DNA of 64,000 nucleotides from a virus. Position numbers and translations under genes: made by a program. The stretch lies in IMG/VR virus record IMGVR_UViG_3300045988_149975. One strand, written 5' to 3'. How positions within the stretch are numbered: position 1 is the stretch's first letter; every line of letters starts with the position of its first letter. The notes under the pieces are model-generated. The model had not been told where the DNA came from. It worked only from the letters and a program-made list of their open reading frames with translations, and did no database searches. This document shows positions 19,848 through 54,900 of this stretch, piece after piece.

Positions 19848-19875
19848 ATTATAACATATTTTGATAAAAATTCAA
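19848..19875 (-). promoter_or_regulatory. candidate promoter for the SpoVS-like gene
   Basis: Minus strand TTGAAT (19870..19875), 16-nt spacer, TGtTATAAT (19848..19856). Confidence 0.35.
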
Positions 19876-20405
19876 CATTGATTTATAATTTTTTTCTCAT
19901 CAATAATAGAGAAAAAATCATTAAATTTCAACATTACAAAATCTTGTGACTTAAACTTTCCTTTTACCTGACTTTGGTGCATTATAAGTACAGGTATTTT
20001 TCCATTAATGCAATCATTTTCTGCCTGTTTAAACCATTCCTGAACGGAAGTCCATCCATTCTTATGATTTTTAAGTTCTAAATGTAAGAGAAAATTTACA
20101 TTATCAGTATAACATACTACATCTCCTCGCAAAGCATTATTCTCAATTCCCTTTAAATAACCACCACTTGATGCTGTTCTACCGAATTTAAGTAAAGGAA
20201 AAATTTTATTCAACTCATTGACTATTTTCCTTTCAAAATTTGCACCTTTAGTTTTAGAGGATTTACCTAAATTGCTTTTTTTAATTTGTTTTTCTAATTT
20301 CTCTATTTCAGGACTGTCAGGAGCATTTTCTTTCAAGAAAACTAATTTATCTTTTAATAAATCAACCCTACGCATTAAACTTTCCGCTCCTATTACTATC
20401 TTCAA
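19872..20405 (-). CDS. VRR-NUC-type PD-(D/E)xK nuclease
   Basis: C-terminal half reads GDVVCY...FLLHLELKN...SVQEWF, matching the VRR-NUC G-PD...E-K...Q..W pattern. Confidence 0.45.
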   Translation of the reverse strand: MKIVIGAESLMRRVDLLKDKLVFLKENAPDSPEIEKLEKQIKKSNLGKSSKTKGANFERKIVNELNKIFPLLKFGRTASSGGYLKGIENNALRGDVVCYTDNVNFLLHLELKNHKNGWTSVQEWFKQAENDCINGKIPVLIMHQSQVKGKFKSQDFVMLKFNDFFSIIDEKKIINQC

Positions 20406-22880: not shown

Positions 22881-23190
22881 CTTTCACATCCTCTGGTTTC
22901 CAAAAACAACAAAATGTTCTACCTTCCTCTGTTACCATATCAAAAGGGGTAACAAAAGAATTTTGGCAGATGTCATTTTCGTCATAATATTTACAACTCT
23001 CACACCTTGAAATGAAATGGGCAGCTTTCATTAAGGCTACATAAAGCCTTGTATCATAGCCTACATGAAAATCCAATACCTCACCTCCTTTATTGTAACT
23101 CTTGATAAGCAAATTCACCAAAATATTTGAGTTCACCTGCTCTCCTTGCTTGTTTAGCCTCTTCCTCTGTTGTATAACACCATAGTTCAC
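22858..23190 (-). CDS. hypothetical protein
   Basis: 110-aa ORF with Cys pairs (CESCKYYDENDIC...CCFW). Confidence 0.4.
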   Translation of the reverse strand: MNYGVIQQRKRLNKQGEQVNSNILVNLLIKSYNKGGEVLDFHVGYDTRLYVALMKAAHFISRCESCKYYDENDICQNSFVTPFDMVTEEGRTFCCFWKPEDVKDETEEVK

Positions 23191-24266
23191 ATTCTTTTCA
23201 CAATTTCAGCAAACAATGATTCATTTTCCCTTAAAAGACGGACTAAATTATCTTGACCTTGTGCAAGCATTTGGGAATCCATGTAATACCACGCTCCCTT
23301 ACGCTCTATAATACCTTTAAGAACAGCTAATACAACTAACTCTTTAGCGGTATCAATAGAACCTTTAGGAAGTAATCCATCATCAGTATATAAATCGTAT
23401 TCACCTGTTGTAAAAGCAGCACCTAATTTATTTTTCTGAATTTTCCATTTAATTACACGCCCTACAATTTTAGCATTAGTACCAGTGCCTTCTTTAATGT
23501 AATCGCCTGCCCTTAAACGGATTTCGATACTATTAGTAAACTTTTGGCTATTTCCTCCAGGAACAGTAGTAGGATCACCATAACCACCAATTTTATCCCT
23601 AAATTGATTTATGGATAAGACAGTAGTAGGCAGTTTACCATTCCTCTCCAAAGTATTATTAAAACTTTGAAATTTACCGTGATAAGTCTGTAATTTCAAT
23701 GGTTTAATACCCATTTGAGCAGTATCAGAAATATCTGTTTCAATATACTTTGTGGGTAACATGGCAGCAATAGAATCTATCACAATAAATTCCACACCCG
23801 CTTTTTGCAATTCTACTGCAATATCTAATGCTTGTTCCATACCTTCAGGTTGACAAAATAGTAATTTATCATTATCAATACCATTCTGCGCTCCCCATTC
23901 CTCACTATAACTACCACTTTCAATTTGAATTAAAGCAGCTTGTAGGGGTATATCACCATCATCAGCTACTACCTCATATTCAAAATTGCCTTTAGTTATT
24001 TTCTTCTTATACATATTCTGTACGGCAGCAATGGCTTTATAAGCAAGTAAAGATTTACCACTACTCTCTTGCCCTGCAAGTGTAATATATCGCCCCGAAG
24101 GTAAGCCACCACCTAATGCGTCATTAAGTGATACACTACCTAAAGGAATTTTGAAATTCATTTCATCATTTATATCTGCGCCCTTACGGATGGCATTTAC
24201 GCCAAAGCGTTTGTTTATATCTTTTATTAGTGTATTTATATCTGCCATAATTTCCTCCTTTATCAT
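23187..24266 (-). CDS. RecA/UvsX-like recombinase
   Basis: Walker A GQESSGKS within a RecA-like core (LPSGRYITLAGQESSGKSLLAY). 359 aa. Confidence 0.7.
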   Translation of the reverse strand: MIKEEIMADINTLIKDINKRFGVNAIRKGADINDEMNFKIPLGSVSLNDALGGGLPSGRYITLAGQESSGKSLLAYKAIAAVQNMYKKKITKGNFEYEVVADDGDIPLQAALIQIESGSYSEEWGAQNGIDNDKLLFCQPEGMEQALDIAVELQKAGVEFIVIDSIAAMLPTKYIETDISDTAQMGIKPLKLQTYHGKFQSFNNTLERNGKLPTTVLSINQFRDKIGGYGDPTTVPGGNSQKFTNSIEIRLRAGDYIKEGTGTNAKIVGRVIKWKIQKNKLGAAFTTGEYDLYTDDGLLPKGSIDTAKELVVLAVLKGIIERKGAWYYMDSQMLAQGQDNLVRLLRENESLFAEIVKRM

Positions 24267-37261: not shown

Positions 37262-38551
37262 TTATGCCCCTAATTTTTCCACAATCTCATCTTTTGTAAA
37301 ACCAAGGTTTTTATAAAGACTCCGTGGATTTTCTACATATTCGTATTTTAAAATGGTAGTCTTACCATTTTCTTCCATTGTTTCATATTTAACTGTATCT
37401 GTATTCTTGCCTGCTTTTTCTACCTCACCTGCATAAATCCAAATATAATCATCAAATAATAGATTACCCCATAAAGGCTTCCAAACTTCCTCGTTGAAAT
37501 TTTCTGCCATATAATAGTAATCCTCTTTAGAACTTAATACTTTTGGTATACCTCTCATTAATAACTCAATCCTTTCTTTAACAGAATCTAATTTTATACT
37601 TTTACGAAAATTATAGGTATTTGCCCACTTCATCCAACCTTCTATACTGGCTACCATACCTCTTGCATAGTCCAAATCTAAATCAGCAGTCTTTAATAGA
37701 CTATCCAATTTTCTAAACCTGCGTTTTATCCTTTTTGCTGTACTCTTTCTTAATAAAACACAGTTGTTAGGAAATGTCCTATAACCAAGAAAGTCTACAC
37801 CTTGCGTTATAGGAAATACATTACTTTTACTTAATAACAGGTTTAACTTATCATAAGCAAATACCTTCGCTTTTTCAGCTACCTCATGTAACTCCTTCTT
37901 ATCATTACCGAAAATTATAAAATCATCACAATACCTTATATATGCACTACATTTTAAATCATACTTTATATAAGTGTCTAATTCATTCATGTATAGATTA
38001 CCAAACCACTGTGAAAGATAATTTCCAATAGGTACGCCCGCCTTTCTATGACCAAATTCCTCTACATATCTTTCAAGTTTTCCACGCATTATATCAGCAT
38101 CTTTACGCCCTTCAAAATTCTTCAAATAACCTATATTAGCTTCTCTTGTTGCAAGGCTATCTATTATTATATCAAGAATACTTAATAAATCTTTATCTTT
38201 AATCTTTTTACGCAATATTATTTTCAATATTTCATGGTCAATATTTACATAAAATTGTGAAATATCAAGTTTAGCACAATACTTATACTTTCTTACATAT
38301 TCAGAGCATTTTATCATTCCCTTATGCTGCCCCTTACCTTTACGACAAGCATAACTATCATATATAAATAAACTATCCCAAATAGGCTCTAACACATTCA
38401 TTATAGCATGATGTACTATTCTATCAGGATAATATGGAAGTACATAAATTAAACGCAATTTAGGCTCATACATTGAATAAATCCTATAAACGGAGTTCTT
38501 ATAATTTCCATCCATTAAATCTTTTTGTAATGATAATAGGTTAGCTTCCAA
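37262..38551 (-). CDS. reverse transcriptase of a diversity-generating retroelement
   Basis: RT motifs in order: RIYSMYEPKLRLIYVLPYYPDRIVHHAIMNVLEP (1/2), LDISQFYVNIDH (A), KAGVPIGNYLSQWFGNLYMNELD (B'), YIRYCDDFIIFG (YxDD). 429 aa. Lies 3' of a TR/VR pair. Confidence 0.8.
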   Translation of the reverse strand: MEANLLSLQKDLMDGNYKNSVYRIYSMYEPKLRLIYVLPYYPDRIVHHAIMNVLEPIWDSLFIYDSYACRKGKGQHKGMIKCSEYVRKYKYCAKLDISQFYVNIDHEILKIILRKKIKDKDLLSILDIIIDSLATREANIGYLKNFEGRKDADIMRGKLERYVEEFGHRKAGVPIGNYLSQWFGNLYMNELDTYIKYDLKCSAYIRYCDDFIIFGNDKKELHEVAEKAKVFAYDKLNLLLSKSNVFPITQGVDFLGYRTFPNNCVLLRKSTAKRIKRRFRKLDSLLKTADLDLDYARGMVASIEGWMKWANTYNFRKSIKLDSVKERIELLMRGIPKVLSSKEDYYYMAENFNEEVWKPLWGNLLFDDYIWIYAGEVEKAGKNTDTVKYETMEENGKTTILKYEYVENPRSLYKNLGFTKDEIVEKLGA

Positions 38552-38604
38552 ATTTTCTCTTACTTTAATAACCTCTGATAAATTTCCTTTACCTTTTCCT
38601 GCTT

Positions 38605-38910
38605 TTAATTCAGCAATTTTAAGATTTTCAATATCAATAATTCTATTCCAAAGATTTCCATATCTTCGTATTTGAAAAACACCCTCTCTATTAAAAAGTT
38701 TAACAAATTGGCACTCTTTATAAAGAGTGCCAAAATGCTATTTAGGTATTTAGGTAAATTGATTTTCGCCTTAACTACTAACCCCTTTACCATCCTGTAA
38801 TGTGTTTCTGCTTTCGCAGAGGATAGAGATTCAGCCGAAGGATTAGCTTTATACCTATTGTATGATACCTTCGTATCACTACAGCTACGCTCGCCGTTGT
38901 TAGAGTTCAC
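38605..38910 (-). CDS. questionable ORF in the DGR spacer
   Basis: 101-aa ORF overlapping the TR 3' end and a 12-bp-stem hairpin (38707..38732). This region is normally a structured non-coding RNA in DGRs. Confidence 0.2.
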   Translation of the reverse strand: MNSNNGERSCSDTKVSYNRYKANPSAESLSSAKAETHYRMVKGLVVKAKINLPKYLNSILALFIKSANLLNFLIERVFFKYEDMEIFGIELLILKILKLLN

Positions 38911-38992
38911 ATTCGCTGAAGCATTATTGACATTAACTGAACGAGAACTGCAACTCGAACTGTTATTCCAGTTACTGCCGAGTTTCGCCTTT
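38877..38992 (-). repeat. DGR template repeat (TR)
   Basis: 116 bp aligning with 39151..39266. About 32 mismatches, every one at a plus-strand T of the TR, which is an A on the transcribed minus strand, changed to C, A or G in the VR. Confidence 0.8.
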
Positions 38993-39124
38993 ATAACCTC
39001 TACCCTTTTAGTTGCAACTATTTATATATATAAATTGGGGGTACGAGATGGTTGTCTACATTACCTCTCCAAGTTTATATCAACTTAAACACCACATTAA
39101 CTTGAATTAATGGGCTACGCCAAC

Positions 39125-40186
39125 TCAATTCCCAAGTTTATGGAGCGGCTCACCACAGCCACGCCCGCCGCTGAAAGAGTCCACAAGCGCCGAAGCACCA
39201 TTGACATCAACCGAACGAGAACCGCAACCCGAACCGCCACCCCAGAGACCGCCGAGCCTCGCCCTGTACAAAGTACCATAGCTTCTACCATAAGACTGGT
39301 CATCTACACCACTATTATATACAGAATCATTCCAACCACTTGAACCGTTTACACCAACATCACTTGCCCATTGCCATAAGAAACCACAAGCATCTTCAAG
39401 CCCATAATTACTTATCATTCTTCTGCCCGCTGTATCAACGTGTCCACCAGTTGTATTGGCATCTGTACTACCTTGTATATTAGTACCTTCATTACTTCCT
39501 TTTGCCGCCACCTGAAACTCATATCTCCACGGCAATCTTTTCTTTATATCAGCAAGTCTTTCTACAAACTGTTCACCATGAAATTTCTTTGTAGAAGCAC
39601 CATCTGCTGTTGTTCCACCATTTACACTCACAAGTTTACTTCCATTCCACGAGTTTAAGTAAATGTCCATCCATATATCTACTTCAGGAATATAAACCAT
39701 TCCTTCAGGTGAACATTTTGGGCGATGAATTAAATCCCATACTGATTGTGGTAATATATCACCTGCTACATAACCACTTAATGTATGCCCGCTTATCGTA
39801 CCCACATTTGTACATAAACAATGGAAACCACCTATTTTTCTACTATTATCTGCATTATAACCATTAGGTACAGTAGAATTTAAAGATAATACAAAATCTA
39901 ATCCATTATTTTCTACTGCATACACATAAACATCTTTACCGTTTCTATTTGCCAAACTTAAAGACAATGTTTTATCCATATCAGTAGAGTATACATTATC
40001 ATTTATTCTTAAAACCATCCCCGCAGGTATTGTTACAGTAGTCTTATTTGTAGTCATTAAACTTTTTCTATTAAAATAAGTATCAATATACTTTGCCAAA
40101 ATTTCTTCACTAAAATTTTCACCATCTATTAAAGAGTTTAAATATGCTCTAATTGTTTCTACCCTTAAATTATTTAATTTATCCAT
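39125..40186 (-). CDS. DGR target (variable) protein, probable receptor-binding tail protein with a C-type-lectin/FGE-like C-terminus
   Basis: 353-aa ORF in the tail-fibre region. The C-terminal Gly/Cys-rich segment (GGLWGGGSGCGSRSVDVNG...GGRGCGEPLHKLGN) carries the VR. Confidence 0.65.
   Translation of the reverse strand: MDKLNNLRVETIRAYLNSLIDGENFSEEILAKYIDTYFNRKSLMTTNKTTVTIPAGMVLRINDNVYSTDMDKTLSLSLANRNGKDVYVYAVENNGLDFVLSLNSTVPNGYNADNSRKIGGFHCLCTNVGTISGHTLSGYVAGDILPQSVWDLIHRPKCSPEGMVYIPEVDIWMDIYLNSWNGSKLVSVNGGTTADGASTKKFHGEQFVERLADIKKRLPWRYEFQVAAKGSNEGTNIQGSTDANTTGGHVDTAGRRMISNYGLEDACGFLWQWASDVGVNGSSGWNDSVYNSGVDDQSYGRSYGTLYRARLGGLWGGGSGCGSRSVDVNGASALVDSFSGGRGCGEPLHKLGN
39151..39266 (-). repeat. 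DGR variable repeat (VR) at the 3' end of the target gene
   Basis: See TR. Lies inside the last 50 codons of ORF 39125..40186, ending about 25 nt before its stop. Confidence 0.8.
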
Positions 40187-40482: not shown

Positions 40483-40710
40483 TTATATAATTAAGAATAA
40501 ATACCATACCCCTAAAACCGCACCTAATATTATAAAATACTTTATGTATATTAAAATATAAAGCGCAATTAAATCATACATGGTCATTACATGGGCAGAG
40601 GTACGATTACTAATACAATAACTAAATACTATACAAACTATTACTGCTAATACAAACCATACTGCTAATGCTATCTCTAAAACCCCAATCATTCTTCTAC
40701 CTCTTTCCAT
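40483..40710 (-). CDS. small membrane protein (2 TM)
   Basis: 75 aa, hydrophobic. Confidence 0.4.
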   Translation of the reverse strand: MERGRRMIGVLEIALAVWFVLAVIVCIVFSYCISNRTSAHVMTMYDLIALYILIYIKYFIILGAVLGVWYLFLII

Positions 40711-41399
40711 CCTTGCGGATATGCTTCAGGACTCCATACATTATTATCTATTACACTTTCATAAATTTTTCCATTGAATTTTACTTTGTCACCTTTCATA
40801 TAAGGATTAGTTGAAGATGGTTGCTCCCAATCTAATATTTCTCCCTCACTTGTCAGCACTTTTGCAAATAAAGAGGGCGCAGAAGTTGGTGTCCATCCTT
40901 CTTGAGATGTATGATTTTGTAATACTTTGTATAATACATTATTATATAATACTTTATCACCTACTACATATTCTTTACTATTACCATTCCAGTGAGGGAA
41001 TACTTCGGTCATTTTTAACGCCGCTCCATCACTAATAGAACGCAGTTTAGTTTGATAAGTATTCTTTGTTTCTACTAAATCATCATCTGCTAATGACATC
41101 ATCATAGCATTTATGGCTAAAGTTTGTAATTCATTTTTTGCTGCCGCTGCTTCTTGTTCATCTAACTCATCTTGTGTTGGCACATAAGGTGGCTCTTCTT
41201 CATAAACTACTTCACCATCTACTTCCTTGCGTATATACACTTTACCATCCGTATTACCTATAAGTAATTGATAATCTTCCTCATTAATCTCTATATAACC
41301 TTCATCTAAAAGTTCTTGTATTCTTTCTTCTGTCATTTCTTCTTTTACATAAGTTTCTTGACGATTTCCATTTTCATCGAACTTAATAATATATGTCAT
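40689..41399 (-). CDS. hypothetical protein (possible tail-fibre assembly or accessory protein)
   Basis: 236-aa acidic ORF immediately downstream of the tail-fibre cassette region. Confidence 0.4.
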   Translation of the reverse strand: MTYIIKFDENGNRQETYVKEEMTEERIQELLDEGYIEINEEDYQLLIGNTDGKVYIRKEVDGEVVYEEEPPYVPTQDELDEQEAAAAKNELQTLAINAMMMSLADDDLVETKNTYQTKLRSISDGAALKMTEVFPHWNGNSKEYVVGDKVLYNNVLYKVLQNHTSQEGWTPTSAPSLFAKVLTSEGEILDWEQPSSTNPYMKGDKVKFNGKIYESVIDNNVWSPEAYPQGWKEVEE

Positions 41400-41460: not shown

Positions 41461-41529
41461 TGGACAATCTCCAAAGGTACTAATGGTTGGGCGAGGGAGA
41501 GTAGCACAGGATTCACAATTCAATGGGGG
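41461..41529 (+). repeat. inverted copy of the tail-fibre junction (encodes WTISKGTNGWARESSTGFTIQWG)
   Basis: 31 bp (41462..41492) identical to the reverse complement of 42572..42602 in gene 42322..43755. The next 37 bp encode the same peptide with different codons (version 1: GGATTCACAATTCAATGGGGG). Confidence 0.7.
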
Positions 41530-41750
41530 AGAGGCACAACATCTTCAAATTGGAATACAAAAATTTTTTTAATAGAAGTTTTAGTAGTATTTATACTATA
41601 AATTTAGATATTTATAATCCTAATGGTAGTCCTGCAAGTGGGGTTTATCAGGACAGCGGCGGTATTACGTATTTTGATAATGATGGTTTTTACGGCGGTT
41701 TTTCACGAGTTGGTTACACGTTTTTTTGGATAGCAGTAGGTATATCTTAA
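41530..41750 (+). other. silent tail-fibre C-terminal cassette D (promoterless, +1 frameshift in an A5T7 run)
   Basis: Encodes ...FNRSFSSIYTINLDIYNPNGSP...GYTFFWIAVGIS*, homologous to the A, B and C tails (FPRxFxT motif, W-x-A-x-G-I-S end). The reading frame changes between the junction copy and the cassette at AAAAATTTTTTT (41559..41570). Confidence 0.55.
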
Positions 41751-41751
41751 T

Positions 41752-41801
41752 GTTTGCTGAAATGCAATTTTTAAAAATTTAAAAATTGCATTTCAGCAAA
41801 C
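41752..41801. repeat. 50-bp perfect palindrome (23-bp stem, 4-nt loop)
   Basis: GTTTGCTGAAATGCAATTTTTAA-AAAT-TTAAAAATTGCATTTCAGCAAAC. Sits between the convergent ends of cassettes D and B. No flanking U-tract. Confidence 0.9.
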
Positions 41802-41821
41802 AAATTAGCTTATTCCAATGG

Positions 41822-42070
41822 CTATCCAATTACATCTATTAAACCACGGGCTACCCCCATATCTTGTTGATATAAGTAAAATCCACTTTTATCTACAGTT
41901 CTTACTTGAAATTCTCCATCATATCTTGAGGGATTATTAGTATCAGTATTTACTAAACTTACCATCATAGTATAATAAGTAGTAAAAGTTCGAGGAAAAT
42001 TGAATTTACCAATTTGTTGTTCAGATGCACTATTAGTGCCTACTACTTGCCCCCATTGAATTGTGAATCC
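41822..42070 (-). other. silent tail-fibre C-terminal cassette B (no start codon, preceded by an in-frame stop)
   Basis: Reverse complement encodes *GFTIQWGQVVGTNSASEQQIGKFNFPRTFTTYYTMMVSLVNTDTNNPSRYDGEFQVRTVDKSGFYLYQQDMGVARGLIDVIG*. The junction uses DNA version 1 (plus 42050..42070). Confidence 0.65.
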
Positions 42071-42101
42071 TTAAAAATTCACTTTATAAACCCCATTTTA
42101 T

Positions 42102-42329
42102 ACTGGTTTTACTATACAATGGGGTTCAACTGGTACTTTAAGCGGCACTGCAACAATTTCTTTTCCTCGCACATTTTCTACTGTTTATCAAGTTATACCT
42201 GTCGGAAATGTAGAAGAAACAAATGAAAACTGGGGTTTCCCATTAAATGAACGTCCTACAACAAAGAATTTTAAAGCTGCACATTGGTATAGTGGTCAGT
42301 GGAGATACATTGCAGTAGGAATTAGCTAA
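42102..42329 (+). other. silent tail-fibre C-terminal cassette C (no start codon, preceded by an in-frame stop)
   Basis: Encodes TGFTIQWGSTGTLSGTATISFPRTFSTVYQVIPVGNVEETNENWGFPLNERPTTKNFKAAHWYSGQWRYIAVGIS*. The junction uses DNA version 2 (GGTTTTACTATACAATGGGG, 42105..42124). Its stop lies in the palindrome GGAATTAGCTAATTCC shared with gene A. Confidence 0.65.
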
Positions 42330-43755
42330 TTCCAATAGCATACCATAATAAATATCCTCCTGTAGTATACATTTGACCCCAAAGCCAATTAAAATTTGTT
42401 GTAGAAAAAGATTTTATACGGGAAGTATATTTTTCGTCATTAGTATTTAAACCTGTTTGTGTTAAATATACTCCATATAAAGTTGTAAACTTTCTGGGAA
42501 AAGTTGTAGTACCGGCTACTGCTTTGCCTGTAGTTCCCCATTGTATAGTAAAACCAGTAGATGATTCACGTGCCCAACCATTAGTACCTTTGGAGATTGT
42601 CCATCCATTATTAGTAATACTACCACTTCCGCCGCCGATTCCTGCACCATCAGCAGGGTCAGGTGAAGGCTGTGTACTTCCTGTTGTACCTGCTACTTTA
42701 CATACCAAAAAACAACCTGCATATTGCTTACCTACAAGTTTACGCACTGTATCTCTTGTAACAGTTTCATTAGGCTGCCAATATCCAGTATCTACATCTG
42801 TTAAAACTCTTTTCCATACATAATTAGTATCTTCACTTGCTGTATCAATAGAAAATTGCAATACATAATTTACTGCATACCCATTTCCACTCTCTGTTGT
42901 AATCTCATAAAAAACATGATTAGTATGCGCTCTTACTACTGTCAAATTACCAGTTTGAGAAGGATAATTATATGTATTACCTTCCCCACCAATTCCCACT
43001 ATGAGCATTGAATTTGCAGGTAAAGCATTACCTATTGCATAAGGTGAATTATCTAATACTCCCCCGCTTAACCCTATTTGACTTAATTGACTATAAGTCT
43101 TAATATTTGTTAAATCATTAAGCGATTTTTTATTTACCACATCATAATCATTTACAGGGCTTTTATCTGTCTGTAAACTTTTAAATAATGTAGGGATTAC
43201 ATTCATATCACTACCTAAAGTTACTAAATTCGTAACAGATGTATTTACCACAGGGGCAATCCACTCTTCTGTTGTATAACCACTTACCCATAAAGTATCT
43301 GCATTACCAGTTGTTAGTTTTAAGCCCGCATATTTTATATTATTATATGTAAAAGTACAAGGCTCTGCTTTGGCATCATCACTATTTGTAGTATTAAAAT
43401 TTACATTACATTCATTAGAATTGTGTACTTTTTGTAAATTAATGTCACAATTTACCGCTGCTGTACTACCATTTTTAGTAGACATTACTACCTTCAATGA
43501 GCAAGCAGAGAATTTTGCAATATCTATATTATCTAATACTGCTAAAGGCAATACCTGTGTAGTACCTGTTCCTAAAGTTGTTTCATGAATTAAGAATTTA
43601 GCATTAGTTCCTTTAAACTGTACAGGCATTACCTGCCAACGAGAAGCATCATCTACATATTCTTTTAAAGAATTAAAATTCTCATTTAATAAAGGGGCAA
43701 GTTCTGTATCTACATATTCTTCCCCTGTAAAAATGTGTAAATCTCCTAAAGCCAT
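42322..43755 (-). CDS. tail fibre / receptor-binding protein with an exchangeable C-terminal domain (expressed copy, cassette A)
   Basis: 477 aa. C-terminus ...WTISKGTNGWARESSTGFTIQWG-TTGKAVAGTTTFPRKFTT...GGYLLWYAIGIS*. The junction peptide and 31 bp of DNA recur in inverted orientation at 41461..41529 and 42102..42124. Confidence 0.7.
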   Translation of the reverse strand: MALGDLHIFTGEEYVDTELAPLLNENFNSLKEYVDDASRWQVMPVQFKGTNAKFLIHETTLGTGTTQVLPLAVLDNIDIAKFSACSLKVVMSTKNGSTAAVNCDINLQKVHNSNECNVNFNTTNSDDAKAEPCTFTYNNIKYAGLKLTTGNADTLWVSGYTTEEWIAPVVNTSVTNLVTLGSDMNVIPTLFKSLQTDKSPVNDYDVVNKKSLNDLTNIKTYSQLSQIGLSGGVLDNSPYAIGNALPANSMLIVGIGGEGNTYNYPSQTGNLTVVRAHTNHVFYEITTESGNGYAVNYVLQFSIDTASEDTNYVWKRVLTDVDTGYWQPNETVTRDTVRKLVGKQYAGCFLVCKVAGTTGSTQPSPDPADGAGIGGGSGSITNNGWTISKGTNGWARESSTGFTIQWGTTGKAVAGTTTFPRKFTTLYGVYLTQTGLNTNDEKYTSRIKSFSTTNFNWLWGQMYTTGGYLLWYAIGIS

Positions 43756-45577: not shown

Positions 45578-46249
45578 TTACTCCCCCTTATACGCAAATT
45601 CACCAAACAACTCTTCTCTTAACTCTTTAGCGACTTTTGCTGCTTCCTCTTCAGTGTCATAACTGCCACCATAAAAACGCTTACCATCTTTGCTACAATA
45701 CGCTTTCCATTTACCCGTTTCCTTATTATAAGAATAACCCTTACGCCTATGATTCATATTGTTTTGCCTTACTGTACAAATTCTTAAATTGCACTTCCTA
45801 TTATCTGCTTTATCGTGGCTAATATGGTCAACTATCATTCCTTCAGGGCAATCCATAATAAACCTGTTTAAACGAATATGTGTATGTGTAGTTTGCCAAT
45901 AACCTTTAGAACCTAATGTAAAATAATGCGGTTTTACTTTCTCAATATCCTCCGTATCTATTAAAGTATAATTTCCCTTATTATCATACATTTTTGTAAC
46001 TTCACCATCTATATAATATGTGTTATAAGCCCTGTTCTTTAAAGAAATTGCCTTTCTCATATTACAACCACAAGAAGTTGTACTACCTTGTCTTAAAGAA
46101 CGATATATAACAGGTTTTACATTTCCACAATCACATTGACATAAAACCTGCGCTTCAGTATTGCCTGACTTTGTAATCTTGTCAGGCAATAATCCAATAA
46201 TTTCCATTCTACCATATCTTTCCCCAATTTGAGGAATAATCTTTCTCAT
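45578..46249 (-). CDS. HNH homing endonuclease with AP2 DNA-binding domain (free-standing, inside the tail cluster)
   Basis: HNH core VDHISHDKADNRKCNLRICTVRQN. AP2-like C-terminus GYSYNKETGKWKAYCSKDGKRFYGGSYDTEEEAAKVAKELR. Confidence 0.7.
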   Translation of the reverse strand: MRKIIPQIGERYGRMEIIGLLPDKITKSGNTEAQVLCQCDCGNVKPVIYRSLRQGSTTSCGCNMRKAISLKNRAYNTYYIDGEVTKMYDNKGNYTLIDTEDIEKVKPHYFTLGSKGYWQTTHTHIRLNRFIMDCPEGMIVDHISHDKADNRKCNLRICTVRQNNMNHRRKGYSYNKETGKWKAYCSKDGKRFYGGSYDTEEEAAKVAKELREELFGEFAYKGE

Positions 46250-46262
46250 ACCTACACCTCCA

Positions 46263-46991
46263 TTAGTAACCTCTACTTGCCCAAGAAATCGTGCCCGCTA
46301 CATATTCACTACCCATTTTCATTGTCACATCAAATGATTTAGTAGTAATATTATAAACAATTATTGTAGGCGTTCCATCAATTCCACTATAAGATTTAAT
46401 AGTAGTATTTACATCAGGCACAATATGTAAAGGTCTTGTAAATTCTACTGTATATGGCTGATTATCTTCCGTAAGTTCTGCAATGCCTGTTTCATAAGTA
46501 TCTGGGCAGTCTATTTTATGAATATAAGTTCTTGCATTAGGTCTATCAGCATTTAAACTTGCTTGCATTACAAACTTACAAAGACATTTTTGATAAATAT
46601 AATCACCTGTAATTAATTCTTTCCATTTACCATAACCAAATGGAGTAATTGTTTCATCCCAATTAGTTTCATTTAATACCTTGTTATAAAATCTAATGTC
46701 ACCAATTACTTGCCCCGCATTTGATACCTTCAAGAAACCTACATCTAAATTAATAGGCACATTTTTAGTAAAATTATTTACTACTGTGGTATCCATATTA
46801 ACATTAATATTAAAATTTCTTATAAAAGCGTTAGTTGTAGTAAATGGTAATTCTACATCTAAAGTATCTAACCATGTATTTAAATATTCTATACCATTTA
46901 CATCTTTAATCTTATAGTGTAATTCATTCATTTTAAAAGGCAATTCAATCATTTTATAACTTCTCGCCTTTTGACTGATTACAACACTCAT
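46263..46991 (-). CDS. tail-associated structural protein
   Basis: 242-aa ORF. Confidence 0.4.
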   Translation of the reverse strand: MSVVISQKARSYKMIELPFKMNELHYKIKDVNGIEYLNTWLDTLDVELPFTTTNAFIRNFNINVNMDTTVVNNFTKNVPINLDVGFLKVSNAGQVIGDIRFYNKVLNETNWDETITPFGYGKWKELITGDYIYQKCLCKFVMQASLNADRPNARTYIHKIDCPDTYETGIAELTEDNQPYTVEFTRPLHIVPDVNTTIKSYSGIDGTPTIIVYNITTKSFDVTMKMGSEYVAGTISWASRGY

Positions 46992-47446
46992 ACCGTTTCT
47001 ACCTCATTAAATAATAATGTAAAACTAATTATATAAGTATCTAATTCCTCTTTATTTATAACAGGATAAGTTACCCTGTCAAACATTGTTCCTTCTGTCG
47101 CCGCATTAAATATACCTGCCTCTGTTAAAGCCCCTGTTGCTACGCCTGCGCCAAAAGTTGCACTCAATGTTAAAAACTTATCGGCAGAAGTATGACTATA
47201 ACCCGCTTTAAGCCTTTCTATTTCTGCAACAAGTGTAGTATCAGTTAAAGCAGGTGCTGTAGTACCTGTTCCTACTGCTATATATTCCATAGGGTCAGGG
47301 CGTGTTGCATTTGCAAAACAATTACATAAAAAATCATAACCCACATTAGTTATAAGATTATGTTTTATAAATTTTTGTTTTAAATTTCCTTCCCCATCTA
47401 ATAACTCACCTGTTACAATAACTTTTATTGCACTTTTTGTATTCAT
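46988..47446 (-). CDS. tail-associated structural protein
   Basis: 152-aa ORF. Confidence 0.4.
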   Translation of the reverse strand: MNTKSAIKVIVTGELLDGEGNLKQKFIKHNLITNVGYDFLCNCFANATRPDPMEYIAVGTGTTAPALTDTTLVAEIERLKAGYSHTSADKFLTLSATFGAGVATGALTEAGIFNAATEGTMFDRVTYPVINKEELDTYIISFTLLFNEVETV

Positions 47447-47457
47447 TTTATACCTCC

Positions 47458-50400
47458 TTATAAATCACCGTATAAAGCAAACTGATTATATACTTTCGGC
47501 GTTTCATAACGCTCCCTGCTTATTTCAAAAGAATCGTAAGTAAGACTATACATTACAAAAGTAAAATAACCATCGCCCTGTGATATTACAAAACTCAAAA
47601 AGTCTGCTTTACCTGAAAAATCTTTCAATGTATATTCTTTTCCATCTGATAATGTTACTACAAATCTATCATCTGTTTCCCTATAATGTAGCCATATATA
47701 ATCGCCCTCATCATTTTTCATTGTAAAAACAGTATAATTATTTGTACTATCAAACGGTACATACATTGTAAAACTGATTGAAAACTTCTCTGTTAAATCA
47801 ATATCTGTCCACTTTGGTCGACATTTTCCATCTATTAGTAAACCTTTTTCATACCTATTTTCTGCATAAGATGGTACACCATAACCACTTAAAGGATTAT
47901 TCCCTTCATCTGATACAAGTGTTTCATTTAAAGATAACCTATCCTGCACAGATTCCTTATTAGCCTCACTATAAGTAGTTATCTCTGTCCAAGAATTATA
48001 CATATCGTCTACACCTAATGGAAACCATAACCTACGGCGTGCATCTTCACTATTCCATACAAAATGTGCATCTTTCCATTTTAATTCCAACGCTTCATTT
48101 GCAGGTTTAATTACCTTTTCAATCCAGTTCCTCGCACAATATTCTTGGTCAAGTTCTATCTCATAAGTGTAATCACCATATACCTTTGCAGTATCAAGCT
48201 GTAAACCTTCAGCATTAACATGGGTATTATAGAATCTGCCATTCCAATCTTCTGCAACAGCGTCATACTCCTTAATCATATTTCTATTAGGTATAGAAGC
48301 TACTGTTAAAGTACAATATGCAGGATTTTCACAGGAAACACCTTTATCTGTATAAGCCTTTAACCAAAACATTGTACTTTGCGCCCACGCATAAGGATAA
48401 CTGAAGAATTGACCTGCACTTGTAGCAAGTATATTACCATATTCCCAATTATCGCCCTCTTTTAATACATAATAGGCTGCACCTTCTACTTTATCCCAAT
48501 GGAACTCAATATTACGTTCATTCTGAACACAGTCAAAACCACCAACATCTCTTGGTCTTGCAATTTCCATTTCCAATACAGCAGGAGTAGAACGATTACC
48601 CACAGTATCTACTGCAATAAGTAAAAATCTATACTCACCAACATCTGCACTATAATAAAAATTATCAGCGTGTATATCTCTTGCAATAGCTGTTTCATCT
48701 GATACAACACCTAAATATAATTCATAATGGTCTACATCTAACTCACCTTTATCCCAATATAACTGGAAACCACCAACTACTTCTTCCCCTCTAAAATTCA
48801 AGGGCATTGCAGGTGCTACATTATTTCCTGTTATATAAATTTCAGGTGAATAAGTATAGGCTGATACTTTACCATATTTACTTGTATTTTGAAATCTAAA
48901 AATATAAGTTTCAAAAATCTCCATATCACCTACAATAGCAGTATATTGTCCATCATCAACAAAGCCGCCGTCTACCCACTCGTCACTACCAACTTTTCTG
49001 TAACTTACGTTAAATCCTTTATTGTAAGTAAATTCAGCATAAGAAACATTTAACTTAACATTACTTACCACCACCTTATCAGGTAAGATATAATATTCTT
49101 GCTCATTAGATATATAAACAATTTCAGGCGGCGCTTCTTGTGGGTCTGCCAAATTTGACACATTAATGATTGGATTACTTGCACCACGTTGTTCAGAATA
49201 TATATCTTCATTATATTCTCTACAAGTAAGTTTAATGCTGCCATCTTGAGTATCTTCTATTTTTTGAATACGGAATTTCTTATCAATGAACTCTGTAACA
49301 TAATCTGTTACAGATATTACATCACCTACTGTTCTATTTAAAGCACGCCTATCTGTTTCAAATTCTATATAAGTCTGACAAGTAAGTGCTTGGTTCAAAT
49401 AAAACCATGCTAATCTACTTGCCTGGTCAAAATTAGTTACACCATACAACTCCATTGTTTCTACTAAAGGCTGTTTTCTAATATAACTTTCAGGACTTAA
49501 CGATGCTTCAGCATTTACTTTTACCCATTCATTATTAGGGTCAACATAGACTACCCTATAAATATCGGGAACATCCTGTAATGGCGCAAAACTAATAGAT
49601 AAACCACTCTTTATTTCAGCAGGAGTATAACTCTGTACTACCTCGTCTGCCTTTTCTACAAATAGACTATATTTACCCGCTCTATATACAAGCATTGAAC
49701 GGCAGCAATTAAGCATATACTGTACCCACTCTAACCTACTACGCTGTTCATCCAAACATAAGTTCAAAGTATAATCCTTTTCATCAAAAAACTTTGCACC
49801 GTCTATAAAACTTTGTACATCAATTTCGTCTAAATCCATACCGCACCCGTTATAACGTGTCATGAAATCAAGTACACACCATGCAGGATTATCTGACCAT
49901 TCTTCCGTATAATCTGTTAAATCTTCAGCATTATTATATTTTTTAACAATAGAACCATCTACTATACAAGTAAAATTAAAACTACCATTCAAATTTTCAT
50001 TGGCATTTGCTTGCAAAGCTGCATAGGCTAAATGCCTTAAACCACCTACTGTTTCAGCTTTAGTTTCTTGGTCACCACCAGTAACACGCCCATCAATTTG
50101 TTGAGTACCGTCACCTACATAAGTATTCCACGATACACCTTCAAATTTATCTGAATTAATAGGTAAATCATCTAATTCCAACTCTCTGATTTCTTTAATT
50201 TTACCATCACACAAAGCGATAATCTTATAAATTGTTTTTTTATCACTACTTAAACGAGAATAAATTAAATTACCTGCTACTTTTACAGTACCATAAATAA
50301 TTGGTATAGGACTTGTATTGCTTACACTTGTTTGTAGTGCGCCGTCACTATATGTATAAGACTGCCTTTTTTTAGATAACTCTTTTTGCTTTCTTAAACC

Positions 50401-50469
50401 TACAAACGTACTTACAAGAGTAAGTGCTATACCAATCCAACCAAAAACTGAACCTAATACTTTGGACAT
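47458..50469 (-). CDS. central tail fibre / host-specificity protein (lambda gpJ-like, FN3-containing)
   Basis: 1003 aa with an N-terminal TM helix, following M/L/K-like tail-tip genes. Internal FN3-like repeats. Confidence 0.55.
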   Translation of the reverse strand: MSKVLGSVFGWIGIALTLVSTFVGLRKQKELSKKRQSYTYSDGALQTSVSNTSPIPIIYGTVKVAGNLIYSRLSSDKKTIYKIIALCDGKIKEIRELELDDLPINSDKFEGVSWNTYVGDGTQQIDGRVTGGDQETKAETVGGLRHLAYAALQANANENLNGSFNFTCIVDGSIVKKYNNAEDLTDYTEEWSDNPAWCVLDFMTRYNGCGMDLDEIDVQSFIDGAKFFDEKDYTLNLCLDEQRSRLEWVQYMLNCCRSMLVYRAGKYSLFVEKADEVVQSYTPAEIKSGLSISFAPLQDVPDIYRVVYVDPNNEWVKVNAEASLSPESYIRKQPLVETMELYGVTNFDQASRLAWFYLNQALTCQTYIEFETDRRALNRTVGDVISVTDYVTEFIDKKFRIQKIEDTQDGSIKLTCREYNEDIYSEQRGASNPIINVSNLADPQEAPPEIVYISNEQEYYILPDKVVVSNVKLNVSYAEFTYNKGFNVSYRKVGSDEWVDGGFVDDGQYTAIVGDMEIFETYIFRFQNTSKYGKVSAYTYSPEIYITGNNVAPAMPLNFRGEEVVGGFQLYWDKGELDVDHYELYLGVVSDETAIARDIHADNFYYSADVGEYRFLLIAVDTVGNRSTPAVLEMEIARPRDVGGFDCVQNERNIEFHWDKVEGAAYYVLKEGDNWEYGNILATSAGQFFSYPYAWAQSTMFWLKAYTDKGVSCENPAYCTLTVASIPNRNMIKEYDAVAEDWNGRFYNTHVNAEGLQLDTAKVYGDYTYEIELDQEYCARNWIEKVIKPANEALELKWKDAHFVWNSEDARRRLWFPLGVDDMYNSWTEITTYSEANKESVQDRLSLNETLVSDEGNNPLSGYGVPSYAENRYEKGLLIDGKCRPKWTDIDLTEKFSISFTMYVPFDSTNNYTVFTMKNDEGDYIWLHYRETDDRFVVTLSDGKEYTLKDFSGKADFLSFVISQGDGYFTFVMYSLTYDSFEISRERYETPKVYNQFALYGDL

Positions 50470-51951: not shown

Positions 51952-54900
51952 TTACTTTGTTGCACCTTTTGCAGCGTTCCTCATACTTGAATTAGTCTGC
52001 AAATCCTTTATAATCTGTGAACGAATCATAGGATATTGCTGTTTCCACATATCCATATTAGCTTTAGGGTCTACAGATTGGAAGTTATTATTTATCGCTA
52101 ATTGAATAGGCTGTCCACCCACTGCCCCACTATTACTTGCAAGGTCAGCACTTGTGTCTGCCGTTACATAACCACCTTCAGCATAACGGAATTTAGGTAA
52201 CTTACCTTTACCACTTAATCCACTACCTGCTGTATTTAACCTATCTAAAAAGTCTGTTCCTAAAGCCCTTACTGCTTTTGCCCTTACTACATATTCACCA
52301 TCTGACAATCTTGCAGGTATACTATCACTTGTAGATGTTCCTGCACCACTTACATAACCGCCTCCTGCAAAACCAAATCCCAATAAACTTGAAGATTGTG
52401 CTTTGGCTGCCTGCATTTGCATCCACATTTGCCAAATCTGCATTACTGCCATTAAAATCATCATTGCATTAGATAATTTTTCCGAATTAGCAGAAGCACC
52501 TATTAAGGCTGCCCCCATACTAATTGCATTTGCTGCGGCGATTTCATTAGCATAGTTATAACCAGTCTGTGCTGTATCACCAAATTTAACAGCAGAACCT
52601 AAACTTGTCATTTTCTCGCCTGTAGCTGTTACAACATCACCTAACTCAAGGAAATCATTATCTAACTGCATACTGCCATTTACACCGTTTACAGTAGTTG
52701 AACTACCCCTGCCCATATTATAACCTGTATTTGTAAAGCCACCTGTTACAGTAGTTGTAGTACCACCACCTAAAGATGTTGTAGTTCCACCAGTAGTATC
52801 AGATACCTGAATACCTACTGCACCGCCTATCTTCTGTGCCGCCTGTGTTACCACATCACCTAACTGCCTAATTGGAGGAATAGCAGTATTTACAATGGCA
52901 TTTTGGAAATCCAAAGAAGCCTGTTTAAACTTATCTTGAAATTCTTTAGAATCTACATCTATTATCTTTAACTTACTCTGTACAGTAGAATCAATTTCCA
53001 CCTCTCTATTACCGACCTGTTCATTAGAGGGTAGTATTGCACTGAATAAGCTGTCTGTAATATTTGTAGCCATCCTATCAAATATCTTCTTACTCCACGT
53101 TTGCAGTACAGATTTTGCAAAATCTTGTAATGCTTCTTTAGCTGTTTTTTCACCCCAAAGCATACTTTGGAAAGCATCTGATAAACTACCAATAAACTCT
53201 TCCTTAATAACTCTTTGGAATGGAGGTACAGCGTCAGTAAGTTCAAGCAATGCTTGTTTAGCATCTAATGCCTGTTGCCTAAAATTATTTGCCTGTGTTA
53301 AACTACCTCTTTGGGCAGCAACCTGTGACATTTTAGTATATAAAGCAATCATATCTGTATATGCGTCTATATACTCATCCATGTGTTCTTTACGGAAATC
53401 GAATAAATCACCTTCAGCGTCTGCTTCTGTATAAGCTAATCTATTAGCTTGATTTTTCTTACTAATATATTGCTCTTGTACATCAAGATTTATTCTCTCT
53501 ATCTGTGCATTAGCTTGCTGTGCTTGCTTCTCAAGGTTTCTTAATCTAATAATATCTTCTAAATTATTTATTGTCCCCTCTAAAGCAGTTTTACGGATTC
53601 CCCATGCATCTATCTCTGCTTGCTTACCACTCTCTACTGCCTGTGCATAACGTTCTTGAGCAGTAGTCATTTCAGCAAGTAATCTTGAATAATCACCTGC
53701 AAATTCTCTAATTAAATTCTGTTCAAATGCTTGCCTTGACTCGCCTGCTATATCTTGATATTTCTTATTTATCTCATCTAATCTATCGTCTAACTTTTTA
53801 TATTCTTCAATCAGCTTTCTTGTATATTCAGCTTCTAAATTCATTGCCTTCTGTCTTGCTTCAGCAATTTTATTATCAAACTGCTCTACATCAGAAGTTT
53901 GTCCCAAGGACTGTGCAATTTCTTTACGCTTTTCATAATTTGCAATTTCCTCATCAAGCTGTTGCTTTGATAATTCCATTGATGCTTCTATATAATTTTG
54001 AGTAGATACTAAATCATTTTTATATGCAGAATCTAACGCCTTTTGCTGTTCCTTTAAAGATGTTAAAGCAAGTTTTAACTCTGCCTCTAATGCTTTATAA
54101 GCACTTTTAGCTAATTTACCTGCCCCTTTTCCTGCACTTCCTGCATCAGCACTATCACCTGCTGTAAACAAAGCCTTAATATTATCAGGTAACAAACTGC
54201 TATCTGCAAAATCCTTCATAAGATTATCAGGATTTAAAGTATCTTTAACTTTATTTGCCGCCGCTTTAGCATCTGCTACAAACTCATCCATTATGTCACC
54301 CATAGTGGTTGAGTCATAAGCGTTCCACGCATTATTTACGGCATTGGTTAAAGTATCAATTTCACCCTGCATTGCATTAGCAGCGTCTTTATCTGTTAAG
54401 GAATACCAAAATTGCTCTATTTTCTTTTTAGCTAAATCTACTTCGAGTCCGATAGCGTTCCACAATTTATTCCATTTCTGTCCTAATGCACTTGAAGCGT
54501 CAGACACTTTGTAAACTGCATATACAACAGTTCCTATTGCCGCAACTATTGCCGCTATGGAAGCCACTGTTGCCGCTGACGCAACTAAAAATGCCGCTAT
54601 TCTTGCAACTAATAATGCAACTTGTTTTGCCGCATTTTTTAAACCAATGGATAAGGTATTAGTAATAACTGACCATATAGCTGTCGCACCTGAAGCCGCT
54701 GTCTGTGCTACTGTAGAAAGTGTAACTTGTCCTGTAAATAAACCTATAATAGTTCTTCCAGTTGCCAATACACCATTAAAAATAGCTTGTGCTGCTGACC
54801 ATGCTGTTGTAGCTATCCTACCTGCTATTGTTGAATCTGCAAATGCTTTAGTTGCATTTGCCATAGCTGTTATAGCACCTGTAAATGTTGTACTTTGTGA

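Follow-up and report, generated by a model that had tools for sequence, protein, structure and literature searches.

A probable nested three-switch shufflon of tail-fibre tips with synonymously recoded junctions in a gut phage genome

The tail-fibre locus described here probably represents a nested shufflon of fibre tips with three switches, in which exact DNA identity would pick the recombining partner and homology-dependent recombination would carry out the exchange, a reading drawn from sequence comparison and held with slightly more confidence than doubt. The locus lies in a window of 64,000 nucleotides (64 kb), by which the whole stretch of analysed DNA is meant. In the orientation of the fibre gene it is composed of the constant part, a forward S1 arm, the v1 linker with a forward S3 arm, tip cassette A (forward), cassette C (reversed), a reversed S3 arm, a spacer, a forward S2 arm, cassette B (forward), cassette D (reversed), a reversed S2 arm with the v2 linker and, finally, a reversed S1 arm. 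The analysis shows this anatomy and the recoding of the junctions, and it shows that relatives include inversion isomers and that the layout is conserved. Inversion between the S3 arms would exchange tip A for tip C, the latter then being expressed, inversion between the S2 arms would exchange D and B, and inversion between the S1 arms would join the constant part to the second module.

The tail-fibre gene of the present isomer (42322..43755, minus strand, an open reading frame of 477 amino acids identical to P0001) comprises the constant part followed by S1, the v1 linker, S3 and cassette A, and three silent tip cassettes are located downstream of it. The expressed-side arm of the outer switch S1 encodes WTISKGTNGWA (42572..42603, minus strand) and forms a perfect 32-nt inverted repeat with the S1 arm of the stub (41461..41492, plus strand). 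The adjoining v1 linker ACGTGAATCATC, covering the RESS codons (42560..42571, minus strand), is spelled differently from the v2 linker GAGGGAGAGTAGCAC of the stub, which covers the RESST codons (41493..41507, plus strand). The S3 arm in the expressed gene, the v1 spelling of (S)TGFTIQWG (42536..42559, minus strand), pairs as a perfect 24-nt inverted repeat with the arm heading cassette C (42101..42124, plus strand), and a perfect 22-nt inverted repeat in the v2 spelling of GFTIQWG links the S2 arm heading cassette B (42050..42071, minus strand) to the S2 arm in the stub (41508..41529, plus strand). The S2 and S3 arms standing back to back are separated by a non-coding spacer of 29 nt (42072..42100), which is near-identical in the related genomes L007 and L155 and identical in L008.

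According to their translations, cassette A (42322..42535, minus strand), the tip currently expressed, and the silent cassette C (42125..42329, plus strand) are intact. The tip of A is also present in P0002, and C is expressed in the relatives P0009, P0057 and P0060. Both cassettes converge on a 16-nt palindrome, GGAATTAGCTAATTCC (42318..42333), which contains their overlapping "...GIS stop" ends. The silent cassettes B (41805..42049, minus strand; delimited by alignment with L008 and translation) and D (41530..41750, plus strand; alignment and translation) are frameshifted, B by a 1-nt deletion near 41854-41872, which replaces the conserved ...NWIAIGIS end, and D by a 1-nt deletion within the run 41558-41575, so that the switch system is not fully functional in the strain of the window. 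An intact counterpart of B was found in P0049 and those of D in P0021, P0030 and P0036. Cassettes D and B converge on a perfect hairpin of 25+25 nt (41751..41802), which is kept in L007 and L008 and looks like a bidirectional terminator. Outside the invertible region and common to all isomers, the downstream gene (40689..41399, minus strand) encodes a pair of CBM5/12 modules and weakly matches tail-fibre assembly proteins.

Every tip is, in this reading, one of several interchangeable "foot" domains for receptor binding, of the Gp53-like_C or R-pyocin fibre type, and the repeats sit in the codons for the conserved first strands of this domain. All six tips tested matched Gp53-like_C (PF21882), the match of the expressed gene covering residues 399-475. 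Tips A, B and C and tip K of L155 reached 25.7-36.6 bits and thus exceeded the curated cut-off of 24.9 bits, and tip D (19.9 bits, E 1e-3) and tip L of L155 (21.4 bits, E 4e-4) remained below it. In addition, the R2 pyocin fibre was hit at E = 5e-3, its receptor-binding domain at the C-terminus being alignable with the junction peptide plus cassette (TASLGASGWWRDNDTGLIRQWG...).

No dispersed exact repeat in the window is longer than S1, S2 and S3, which are also its only non-hairpin exact repeats of at least 21 nt; S3 extends to 33 nt at 88% identity, and the longest direct repeat in the whole 64 kb measures 19 nt. The first-pass annotation had described inverted junction copies as identical and direct copies as different, which was borne out, as inverted partners share 22, 24 and 32 nt and copies in direct orientation at most 8 nt (CAATGGGG). 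Pairs of non-partner arms among the three repeats have 8-9 nt in common. The identical block previously placed at 41462-41492 with 31 bp is real, its true extent being 32 nt (41461-41492 and 42572-42603), and instead of the two classes of recombination sites assumed before, three orthogonal repeat classes were found.

Likewise, the junction peptide ARESSTGFTIQWG of 13 residues does occur in two synonymous spellings, v1 in the expressed gene (GCACGTGAATCATCTACTGGTTTTACTATACAATGGGG(A)) and v2 in the inverted stub (GCGAGGGAGAGTAGCACAGGATTCACAATTCAATGGGGG). The full peptide, formerly ascribed to all four copies, is confined to these two, and cassettes B and C carry just (T)GFTIQWG after stop codons. 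v1 and v2 are spelled differently in 11 of their 12 degenerate codons, with 16 of the 17 nucleotide differences that the peptide allows, and both serine codons change family (TCN to AGY). When synonymous spellings are drawn at random with the codon usage of the genome as weights, at least 16 differences arise with P of about 3e-4 to 9e-4, and the codon-usage likelihood of v2 lies at the 2.5th percentile. The recoding is hence more extreme than saturated drift, the explanation against which the earlier proposal had been set. A third spelling, v3, present in some relatives with a single cassette, alters three amino acids and contains few synonymous changes. The recoded linker of 12-15 nt between S1 and S2 or S3 is unnecessary for the logic of deletion avoidance, a point against the main reading.

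The supposition that the arrangement permits inversions is supported by the relatives: inversion has taken place at each of the identical blocks, as simulated isomers of the window are colinear with them. After simulated inversion at S1 and S2, the window and L008 form a single match of 1148 nt at 94.9% identity, homology stopping at the outer edges of S1 (on the expressed side that of 42572..42603), and after simulated inversion at S3, the window is colinear with L007. The window and L008 are accordingly exactly two clean inversions apart. Similarly, P0121 shares the shaft of P0049 (97.9% identical) but carries the partner, D-type tip. None of the 156 site positions differs between the window and L008 compared to 59 of 989 positions elsewhere in the segment (Fisher P = 2.7e-4), because of which selection seems to act on the DNA of the site arms themselves. 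All clade members that were examined carry S2 and S3 with the same DNA sequence, and in L155 both S1 arms share the same A-to-G change, which fits conversion between the arms. No exact copy of nine isomer proteins predicted from the window, L008 and L155 was present in a collection of 15 billion proteins; with only one to three contigs for each strain, this absence is evidence of little weight.

The two-version layout is kept with differing tips in four genomes with four cassettes (the window, L008, L007 and L155), and L155 and L156 bear four unrelated tips on the same frame of S1, S3 and S2. L158 represents a two-cassette version with S1 only. The rule that partners are identical and same-orientation copies different holds for five four-cassette genomes, including L159 of a more distant clade, in which three repeat classes of 25, 23 and 22 nt surround a common core of 13 nt. 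Partners share 22-25 nt in L159, and non-partners or same-orientation copies just the 13 nt of the core, which in all four inner sites of this clade includes a 10-nt palindrome. The clade reaches the same distinction of partners and non-partners by an independent route. Across genomes, the lengths of the repeats range from 19-36 nt (S1) to 22-25 nt (S2) and 24-25 nt (S3), with edges set by the point at which the flanks diverge. The temperate phage L090 with a homologous tip was dismissed as a model, as its junction copies share one block whatever their orientation, which is a different design.

These comparisons also bear on an explanation without programmed switching, in which the locus would be a mosaic from rare exchanges between co-infecting phages at conserved junctions, v1 and v2 would be no more than the marks of two cassette modules with different origins, and the cassettes now silent would be decaying relics. 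Exchange between genomes at the joints is indeed rampant, as one shaft occurs with at least a dozen tips and the same tips on different shafts. Also in line with it are the frameshifts of B, D and cassette A', the silent cassette of L007, which argue against strong continuous selection on all cassettes, and the scar of cassette C that L157 retains in direct orientation. The existence of single-cassette relatives, some with v3, and the missing isomer proteins point the same way. Nevertheless, such a history is distinctly improbable, for unrelated tips sit on the same layout of four cassettes and three repeats in L007, L008 and L155 (and, differently built, in L159), the window and L008 are separated by two clean inversions, and zero amino-acid change combined with near-maximal synonymous change is unlike separate ancestry; in v3 the pattern is reversed.

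The layout of the locus is found again, with 0-2 mismatches, in independent assemblies of two further samples. L003, a single megahit contig, spans the whole region with one mismatch, and L001 and L006 reproduce parts of it. Breaks in the region are frequent among the contigs of this phage family, as would be expected of a chimeric contig from mixed strains; given the agreement of L003, L001 and L006 with the window and the same architecture in independent samples and assemblers, an assembly artefact was rejected as having next to no probability. In the assemblies of at least four samples, contigs end precisely on the boundaries of S2. Such ends, counted by allowing for 55-nt graph overlaps where present, occur in L006 (both ends), L001, L156, L007, L141 and L134. 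The end block of 55 nt common to L001 and L006 stops exactly at 42071, and the left end block of L006 (41475-41529) stops exactly at the end of the S2 stub arm, so that L006 is the S2-bounded segment assembled alone, which again speaks against rare exchanges between phages. The breaks indirectly suggest heterogeneity within samples, with both orientations possibly present in one population. The break at 42613 in L002 and L003 was discarded as a signal of S1, being the boundary of another fibre module of co-occurring L004-type strains.

Fairly frequent switching, as suggested by the S2 breaks in several samples, would also be expected from a classical site-specific shufflon, in which an unrecognised invertase encoded by phage or host acts at S1, S2 and S3. 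Such an enzyme would provide orientation control, as in Gin/Hin or Rci, and the two spellings would be historical baggage or a tuning of site affinity and not a guard against deletion. A sequence-specific enzyme would explain the identity of S2 and S3 throughout the clade equally well, and the invariant site arms of the window and L008 as well as the palindromic core of the L159 clade are in line with it. No Pfam match to a serine or tyrosine recombinase (Resolvase, Phage_integrase) was obtained in the scanned window ORFs of at least 114 amino acids. The scans of the window covered 66 ORFs of at least 94 amino acids, including every minus-strand ORF of at least 114 amino acids bar named exceptions; ORF 51952-56745 stood outside them, and ORFs 46988-47446 and 47458-50469 were compared to PHROGs only. 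The genome beyond the window was covered via relatives or precomputed Pfam hits, and neither the 10 kb rightward flank of the same strain nor the remaining flanks of two relatives contained a resolvase or integrase domain according to Pfam. Many ORFs are without a Pfam match, and short ORFs or such Pfam-less proteins could conceal an unrecognised recombinase. Still, a dedicated invertase is considered rather unlikely, since it would have to act on three unrelated sequences: no motif common to S1 and either S2 or S3 rose above chance, and dyad symmetry in the three repeats was no better than in shuffled sequence. Moreover, repeat length varies between genomes with edges set by flank divergence, and sites could be made incompatible for an enzyme with less than near-maximal recoding.

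The lack of an invertase domain in the regions scanned, the lack of a common motif or dyad and the presence of a phage-encoded RecA (23187..24266, minus strand; Pfam RecA, 6e-40) favour homology-dependent recombination, which is the preferred, unproven mechanism. The phage RecA is a candidate enzyme for it, and PD-(D/E)XK nucleases are encoded at 19872-20405 and 21568-22434. We infer which enzyme acts, how often switching takes place and that the recoding is protective. Exchange would proceed via homology by RecA and the nucleases or by template switching between the short inverted repeats, with the partner selected by exact identity, as partner arms share 22-36 nt and same-orientation arms 8 nt, the latter because the same peptide is spelled by two nearly maximally different codon sets. 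Under such exchange, recoding would stop same-orientation copies from recombining and deleting cassettes, and codon choice would prevent cross-talk between the inner switches S2 and S3. That deletions would be suppressed is a logical consequence of the layout and would matter only for machinery lacking orientation control. Arms of 22-25 nt are at or below the homology length usually held to be efficient for RecA-type recombination, and this length counts against the RecA-type route. It is proposed tentatively, with doubt somewhat prevailing, that the locus is an invertase-free shufflon in which general recombination flips short exact inverted repeats of about 22-36 nt, and in which synonymous codons are an address code that keeps parallel switches orthogonal and guards same-orientation copies of an invariant structural peptide against deleting cassettes. 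Such a code would have arisen two or more times in this family: one clade would have recoded upstream of the core, and the other would have adopted cassette-specific codons downstream of it.

The locus belongs to an uncultured and apparently virulent gut phage with a genome of about 100 kb. Among 50,697 phage records, blastn gave no match to the locus, and the nearest cultured relative by portal protein, Bacillus phage BCD7, was too distant (35% identity) to serve as an annotated guide. The phage also carries a diversity-generating retroelement (DGR) on a neighbouring receptor-binding gene, so that two diversification devices adjoin. If the proposed explanation is true, virulent phages with general recombination alone could run multi-state receptor-binding switches, and selection on synonymous sites could decide which repeats recombine, a constraint usually invisible to annotation and dN/dS analyses. 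It would further explain why abundant gut phage assemblies break at fibre-tip junctions and would offer a signature for finding such loci, namely partner repeats of at least 22 nt along with recoded same-orientation copies.

Tail-fibre inversion switches are the textbook case of programmed host-range variation, and those known to us rely on a dedicated invertase and a single site family. The G segment of Mu (Gin), the C segment of P1 (Cin) and the multiple-inversion system Min of p15B are served by serine invertases, encoded beside or close to the invertible segment, the crossover sites of which are dyad-symmetric, about 26 bp long with two imperfect inverted half-sites flanking a 2-bp core, and of one family. 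As in these systems, inversion in the window would swap the C-terminal receptor-binding part of the fibre, the crossover sites lie inside coding sequence at the junction of constant and variable parts, and silent alternatives occupy the opposite strand. Unlike there, an invertase gene was not found in the scanned window ORFs and sampled flanks, the sites lack dyad symmetry and fall into three unrelated repeat classes, the assembly- or chaperone-like gene lies outside the invertible region, and the phage is apparently virulent instead of temperate. The cassettes resemble the foot domains of R-type pyocins and phages (PDB 6CT8, 6CL6) through their Gp53-like_C matches. The arrangement itself stands apart, as we know of no foot-domain proteins with invertible alternatives so arranged. 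Heterospecific lox and FRT sites (lox2272/loxP "FLEx") are interleaved versions that recombine only with themselves, and the locus would be their natural counterpart, with two self-only versions interleaved so that only wanted rearrangements occur; those designs are man-made and enzyme-based, whereas the versions in the window are natural, lie within coding sequence and encode the same peptide.

For the R64 shufflon, the danger that sites in the same orientation recombine and delete DNA is acknowledged as a problem of design (PMC11850598). All sites there carry one conserved asymmetric repeat, so that any inverted pair can recombine, and enzyme and site asymmetry prevent deletion (PMC11850598, Gyohda references therein). 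The window shares with the R64/IncI shufflon (Rci, sfx sites) several cassettes for an adhesin-like C-terminus that inversions would shuffle, and differs in the lack of an Rci-like gene in the window and sampled flanks, in its orthogonal site classes and in same-orientation copies that differ by codon choice. General surveys of gene-altering inversions (PMC9881135) do not mention synonymous recoding or the avoidance of direct repeats. Several distinct repeat classes in a nested inversion locus, for which the first-pass annotation knew of no described precedent, are already known from pneumococcal hsdS (PMC4948785). This cod/ivr locus (SpnD39III/Spn556II) contains three inverted-repeat pairs of 15, 298 and 85 bp with a switch each. 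PsrA, the local recombinase, is dispensable for two of the three inversions, and short direct repeats are sites of excision (PMC4948785, PMC6620402). Both loci thus combine distinct inverted-repeat pairs, nested or adjacent and each with its own segment, into combinatorial alleles. In hsdS, however, the repeat classes lie at different protein positions and encode different peptides, so that no recoding is needed, the recombinase-independent repeats measure 85-298 bp compared to 22-32 nt in the window, and the target is a bacterial Type I restriction specificity gene with a tyrosine recombinase, whereas in the window it is a phage fibre.

The tail-fibre gene (42322..43755, minus strand) encodes 477 aa, the final ~80 residues of which match Pfam Gp53-like_C. 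Junction and tip align with the foot domain by which the R2 pyocin fibre binds its receptor (PDB 6CT8/6CL6); WTISKGTNGWARESSTGFTIQWG is therefore the conserved stretch with which the receptor-binding domain begins. In fibre orientation, the constant part is followed by forward S1, a linker in the first spelling of the junction peptide (v1), forward S3 and the expressed cassette A, then by inverted cassette C, inverted S3 and a 29-nt spacer. Beyond the spacer lie forward S2 and cassette B, a hairpin, inverted cassette D and S2, a linker in the second spelling (v2) and inverted S1. All three repeats are exact inverted pairs, of 32 nt for S1 (41461-41492 / 42572-42603), 22 nt for S2 (41508-41529 / 42050-42071) and 24 nt for S3 (42101-42124 / 42536-42559). 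They rank as the three longest dispersed exact repeats of the whole 64 kb, the longest direct repeat being 19 nt. Every tip tested matched Gp53-like_C, D only below Pfam's curated cut-off. Moreover, the tips silent here are expressed in fibre proteins of relatives, namely C in P0009, P0057 and P0060, B in P0049, and D in P0021, P0030 and P0036.

The junction peptide ARESSTGFTIQWG is spelled GCA CGT GAA TCA TCT ACT GGT TTT ACT ATA CAA TGG GGA in the expressed gene (v1) and GCG AGG GAG AGT AGC ACA GGA TTC ACA ATT CAA TGG GGG in the inverted stub (v2). The spellings differ at 11 of 12 degenerate codons and at 16 of 17 possible nucleotides, with both serine codons switching codon family. The codons of v2 are unusual for the genome (2.5th percentile of codon usage), and the chance of such divergence between two independent, usage-weighted spellings is low (P about 3e-4 to 9e-4). 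At no point do v1 and v2 agree over more than 8 consecutive nt; thus same-orientation junctions (expressed versus B, stub versus C) have 8 nt in common, and the inverted partner copies 22, 24 and 32 nt. These values bear out the first-pass annotation, according to which one peptide is written in two synonymous versions, identical between inverted copies and different between direct ones. Its identical outer block of 31 bp also exists as an inverted pair, but with the 32 nt of S1. Other details have to be revised: B and C hold only the GFTIQWG part and not the whole junction peptide, and there are three repeat classes instead of two site classes.

All eight isomers of the window were simulated and aligned to relatives. 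A single-block alignment to L008, a 93.7-kb contig with fibre P0049, was given by the S1+S2 isomer only, with 1148 colinear nt at 94.9% identity. This block runs exactly from S1 arm to S1 arm, homology ending at both outer edges. Likewise, the contig L007 is colinear with the S3 isomer, so that the expected inversion at identical blocks is matched by natural arrangements. Between the window and L008, the S1-to-S1 segment shows 0/156 differences inside the sites and 59/989 outside (P = 2.7e-4), and the fibre P0121 joins the P0049 shaft (97.9% identical) to the partner D-type tip. In sample ERZ28618332, the S2-bounded segment was assembled alone as a 597-nt scaffold (L006, window 41475..42071), both 55-nt end blocks of which stop exactly on the S2 boundaries and are overlapped over those 55 nt by the neighbouring scaffold. 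Contigs from other samples (L156, L007, L141, L134) end exactly at the S2 boundary or one 55-mer past it. Since a 22-nt repeat alone cannot break a k=55 graph, the sequence beyond S2 must differ within the sample. Such breaks are indirect evidence and fit inversion; a mixture of strains with different tips would also produce them.

Cassettes B and D have each lost 1 nt (at window 41854-41872 and 41558-41575, respectively) when compared with their intact counterparts in L008 and relatives, so that neither class-2 tip of this strain is in frame. Both deletions recur in two other assemblies from other samples (L003, L006). In L007, the silent cassette A' (7090-7320; L141 57-300) is frameshifted near its 3' end, featuring GQMYTTEDIYYGML in place of GQMYTTGGYLLWYAIGIS. 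Judging from the reading frames, the switch between A and C would be the only one to give two full-length fibres in this strain. The predicted isomer proteins had no exact match in a large protein collection. Silent cassettes can accordingly decay, which limits the claim of continuous selection on every switch.

With regard to the mechanism, no Pfam match to a serine or tyrosine recombinase was obtained for the scanned window ORFs of at least 114 aa, a set to which the two long minus-strand ORFs 51952-56745 and 47458-50469 do not belong. For the same strain, the 10 kb to the right likewise has no such record, and none was found in what remained of the flanks of two relatives (~10 kb per side), one of which carries S1-v2-S2. 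S1 has no motif beyond chance in common with S2 or S3, and dyad symmetry is absent from all three. Repeat lengths vary by genome, the edges lying where flanks happen to diverge, and the phage possesses its own RecA as well as PD-(D/E)XK nucleases. Taken together, these features favour homology-dependent exchange as the candidate mechanism of flipping, which might proceed by RecA-type recombination or by template switching between close inverted repeats. Neither route has built-in orientation control, and same-orientation repeats would consequently delete the cassettes between them. Recoding would then be the only available protection, which is the logic of the first-pass annotation; as a whole, its reading appears largely right, with deletion protection as a proposed role. 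Weak points of homology-dependent exchange are the shortness of the repeats and the strict conservation of S2 and S3 across genomes. The absence of an invertase is weakened by the many proteins without Pfam annotation. Besides, the linker from S1 to S2/S3 is recoded although deletion avoidance does not need it.

The same frame carries four tips unrelated to A-D in L155/L156 (S1 36 nt, S3 25 nt, S2 25 nt), again with v1 at the expressed and v2 at the stub side and with the same A-to-G variant in both S1 arms. C is expressed and A' silent in L007/L141, together with two other class-2 tips. L158 is an S1-only version with two cassettes, L009 and others have one tip each, and the junction of some single-tip relatives is spelled in a third way (v3) in which three amino acids are changed. 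L159, from a clade whose fibre is just 61% identical, again combines four cassettes with three repeat classes (25, 23 and 22 nt). All its inner sites have the 13-nt core CATTGCAATGGGG in common, and partner specificity is set by the flanks. For the outer pair these are upstream NTGL codons; for the inner pairs, the three codons that open the cassette (SYT or QST). Same-orientation copies have 13 nt in common and no more. Thus, two lineages arrive at one result in different ways (partners at least 22 nt, non-partners at most 13 nt).

Further rearrangements were observed at related loci. The expressed tip of L158 (5912-5944 / 6351-6383) has an S2-type 5' half and the same first codons (GGGGAACTACAAGC) as the A-type silent cassette. 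Possibly this tip arose by hybrid formation inside the common CAATGGGG core; if so, the event would be a rare one between classes. In L157, an 83-nt remnant of cassette C (6331-6412; 92.8% identity to window 42104-42185) lies in direct orientation 3' of the stop codon of tip cassette N, starts from CAATGGGG and looks like the scar of a non-inversion rearrangement. A second mosaic boundary occurs upstream of S1 at window 42613 (L002 end, L003 start, L004 homology break), where the assembly of sample ERZ27290399 breaks exactly. In L004-type relatives, which have no shufflon, everything downstream of ...GIGG(G/R)SGS is swapped for a fibre end with a collar domain and for another assembly gene. 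Many fibres of unrelated gut and oral phages (IMG/VR loci L010-L129) have a tip domain that opens with GFTIQWG, and many of the contigs concerned start or end right at the motif, which suggests widespread tip exchange or inversion at the junction. The temperate phage L090 (integrase at 2684-3913) has four junction copies (4470-5430), all of which, in either orientation, have an ARDNST-coding block around CACGTGATAACTC in common, with GFTIQWG codons different in each. This is a one-class design, the opposite of that in the window.

The phage has a GC content of ~32%, all window genes on the minus strand and a siphovirus-type tail module. Besides RecA and the nucleases, the window encodes PolA, DnaB, primase, ribonucleotide reductase and QueC. 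An identical fibre protein (P0001) is encoded on a 101,513-nt contig; relatives of 91-114 kb derive from human gut metagenomes, and the nearest cultured relative is Bacillus phage BCD7 (portal protein, 35% identity). Homing endonucleases and inteins are numerous, the latter within the C5-methylase (2428-4443), ribonucleotide reductase (14305-17184) and terminase (L132 4348-6759). An HNH-AP2 homing endonuclease gene (45578-46249), three genes upstream of the fibre gene, is found in the window, L007 and L009 and is missing from L008, L155 and L158. Near the left end of the window (199-224), two independent short contigs (L130, L131) stop within 25 nt of each other; the site could be a terminus of the genome or one more variable spot. 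A diversity-generating retroelement (37262-40186) lies about 1.3 kb from the shufflon. It has a minus-strand reverse transcriptase gene (37262-38551) and a template repeat (38876-38989); its 114-nt variable repeat (39150-39263; 77% identity to the template) is located 3'-terminally in a gene for an Mtd-like tail protein (39125-40186). Thus, one phage holds two separate devices for varying receptor-binding proteins.

The locus works in like manner to the fibre inversions of Mu, P1 and p15B and the R64 shufflon; it differs in that neither an invertase nor Rci was found and that its sites do not form one family. In formal terms, it most resembles the pneumococcal hsdS locus, where three distinct inverted-repeat pairs occur, two of which invert without local recombinase, and excisions take place at short direct repeats (PMC4948785, PMC6620402). 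Unlike in the window, its repeat classes encode different protein parts and hence no recoding is seen. A survey of gene-altering inversions names tail fibres as targets, with no mention of synonymous divergence or direct-repeat avoidance (PMC9881135). The deletion problem of multiple same-orientation sites has been described together with an enzyme-level answer by Rci (PMC11850598). Accordingly, we rate the locus as a system of multiple tail-fibre inversions in which codon choice has made the repeats orthogonal and addressed by identity, with no detectable invertase.
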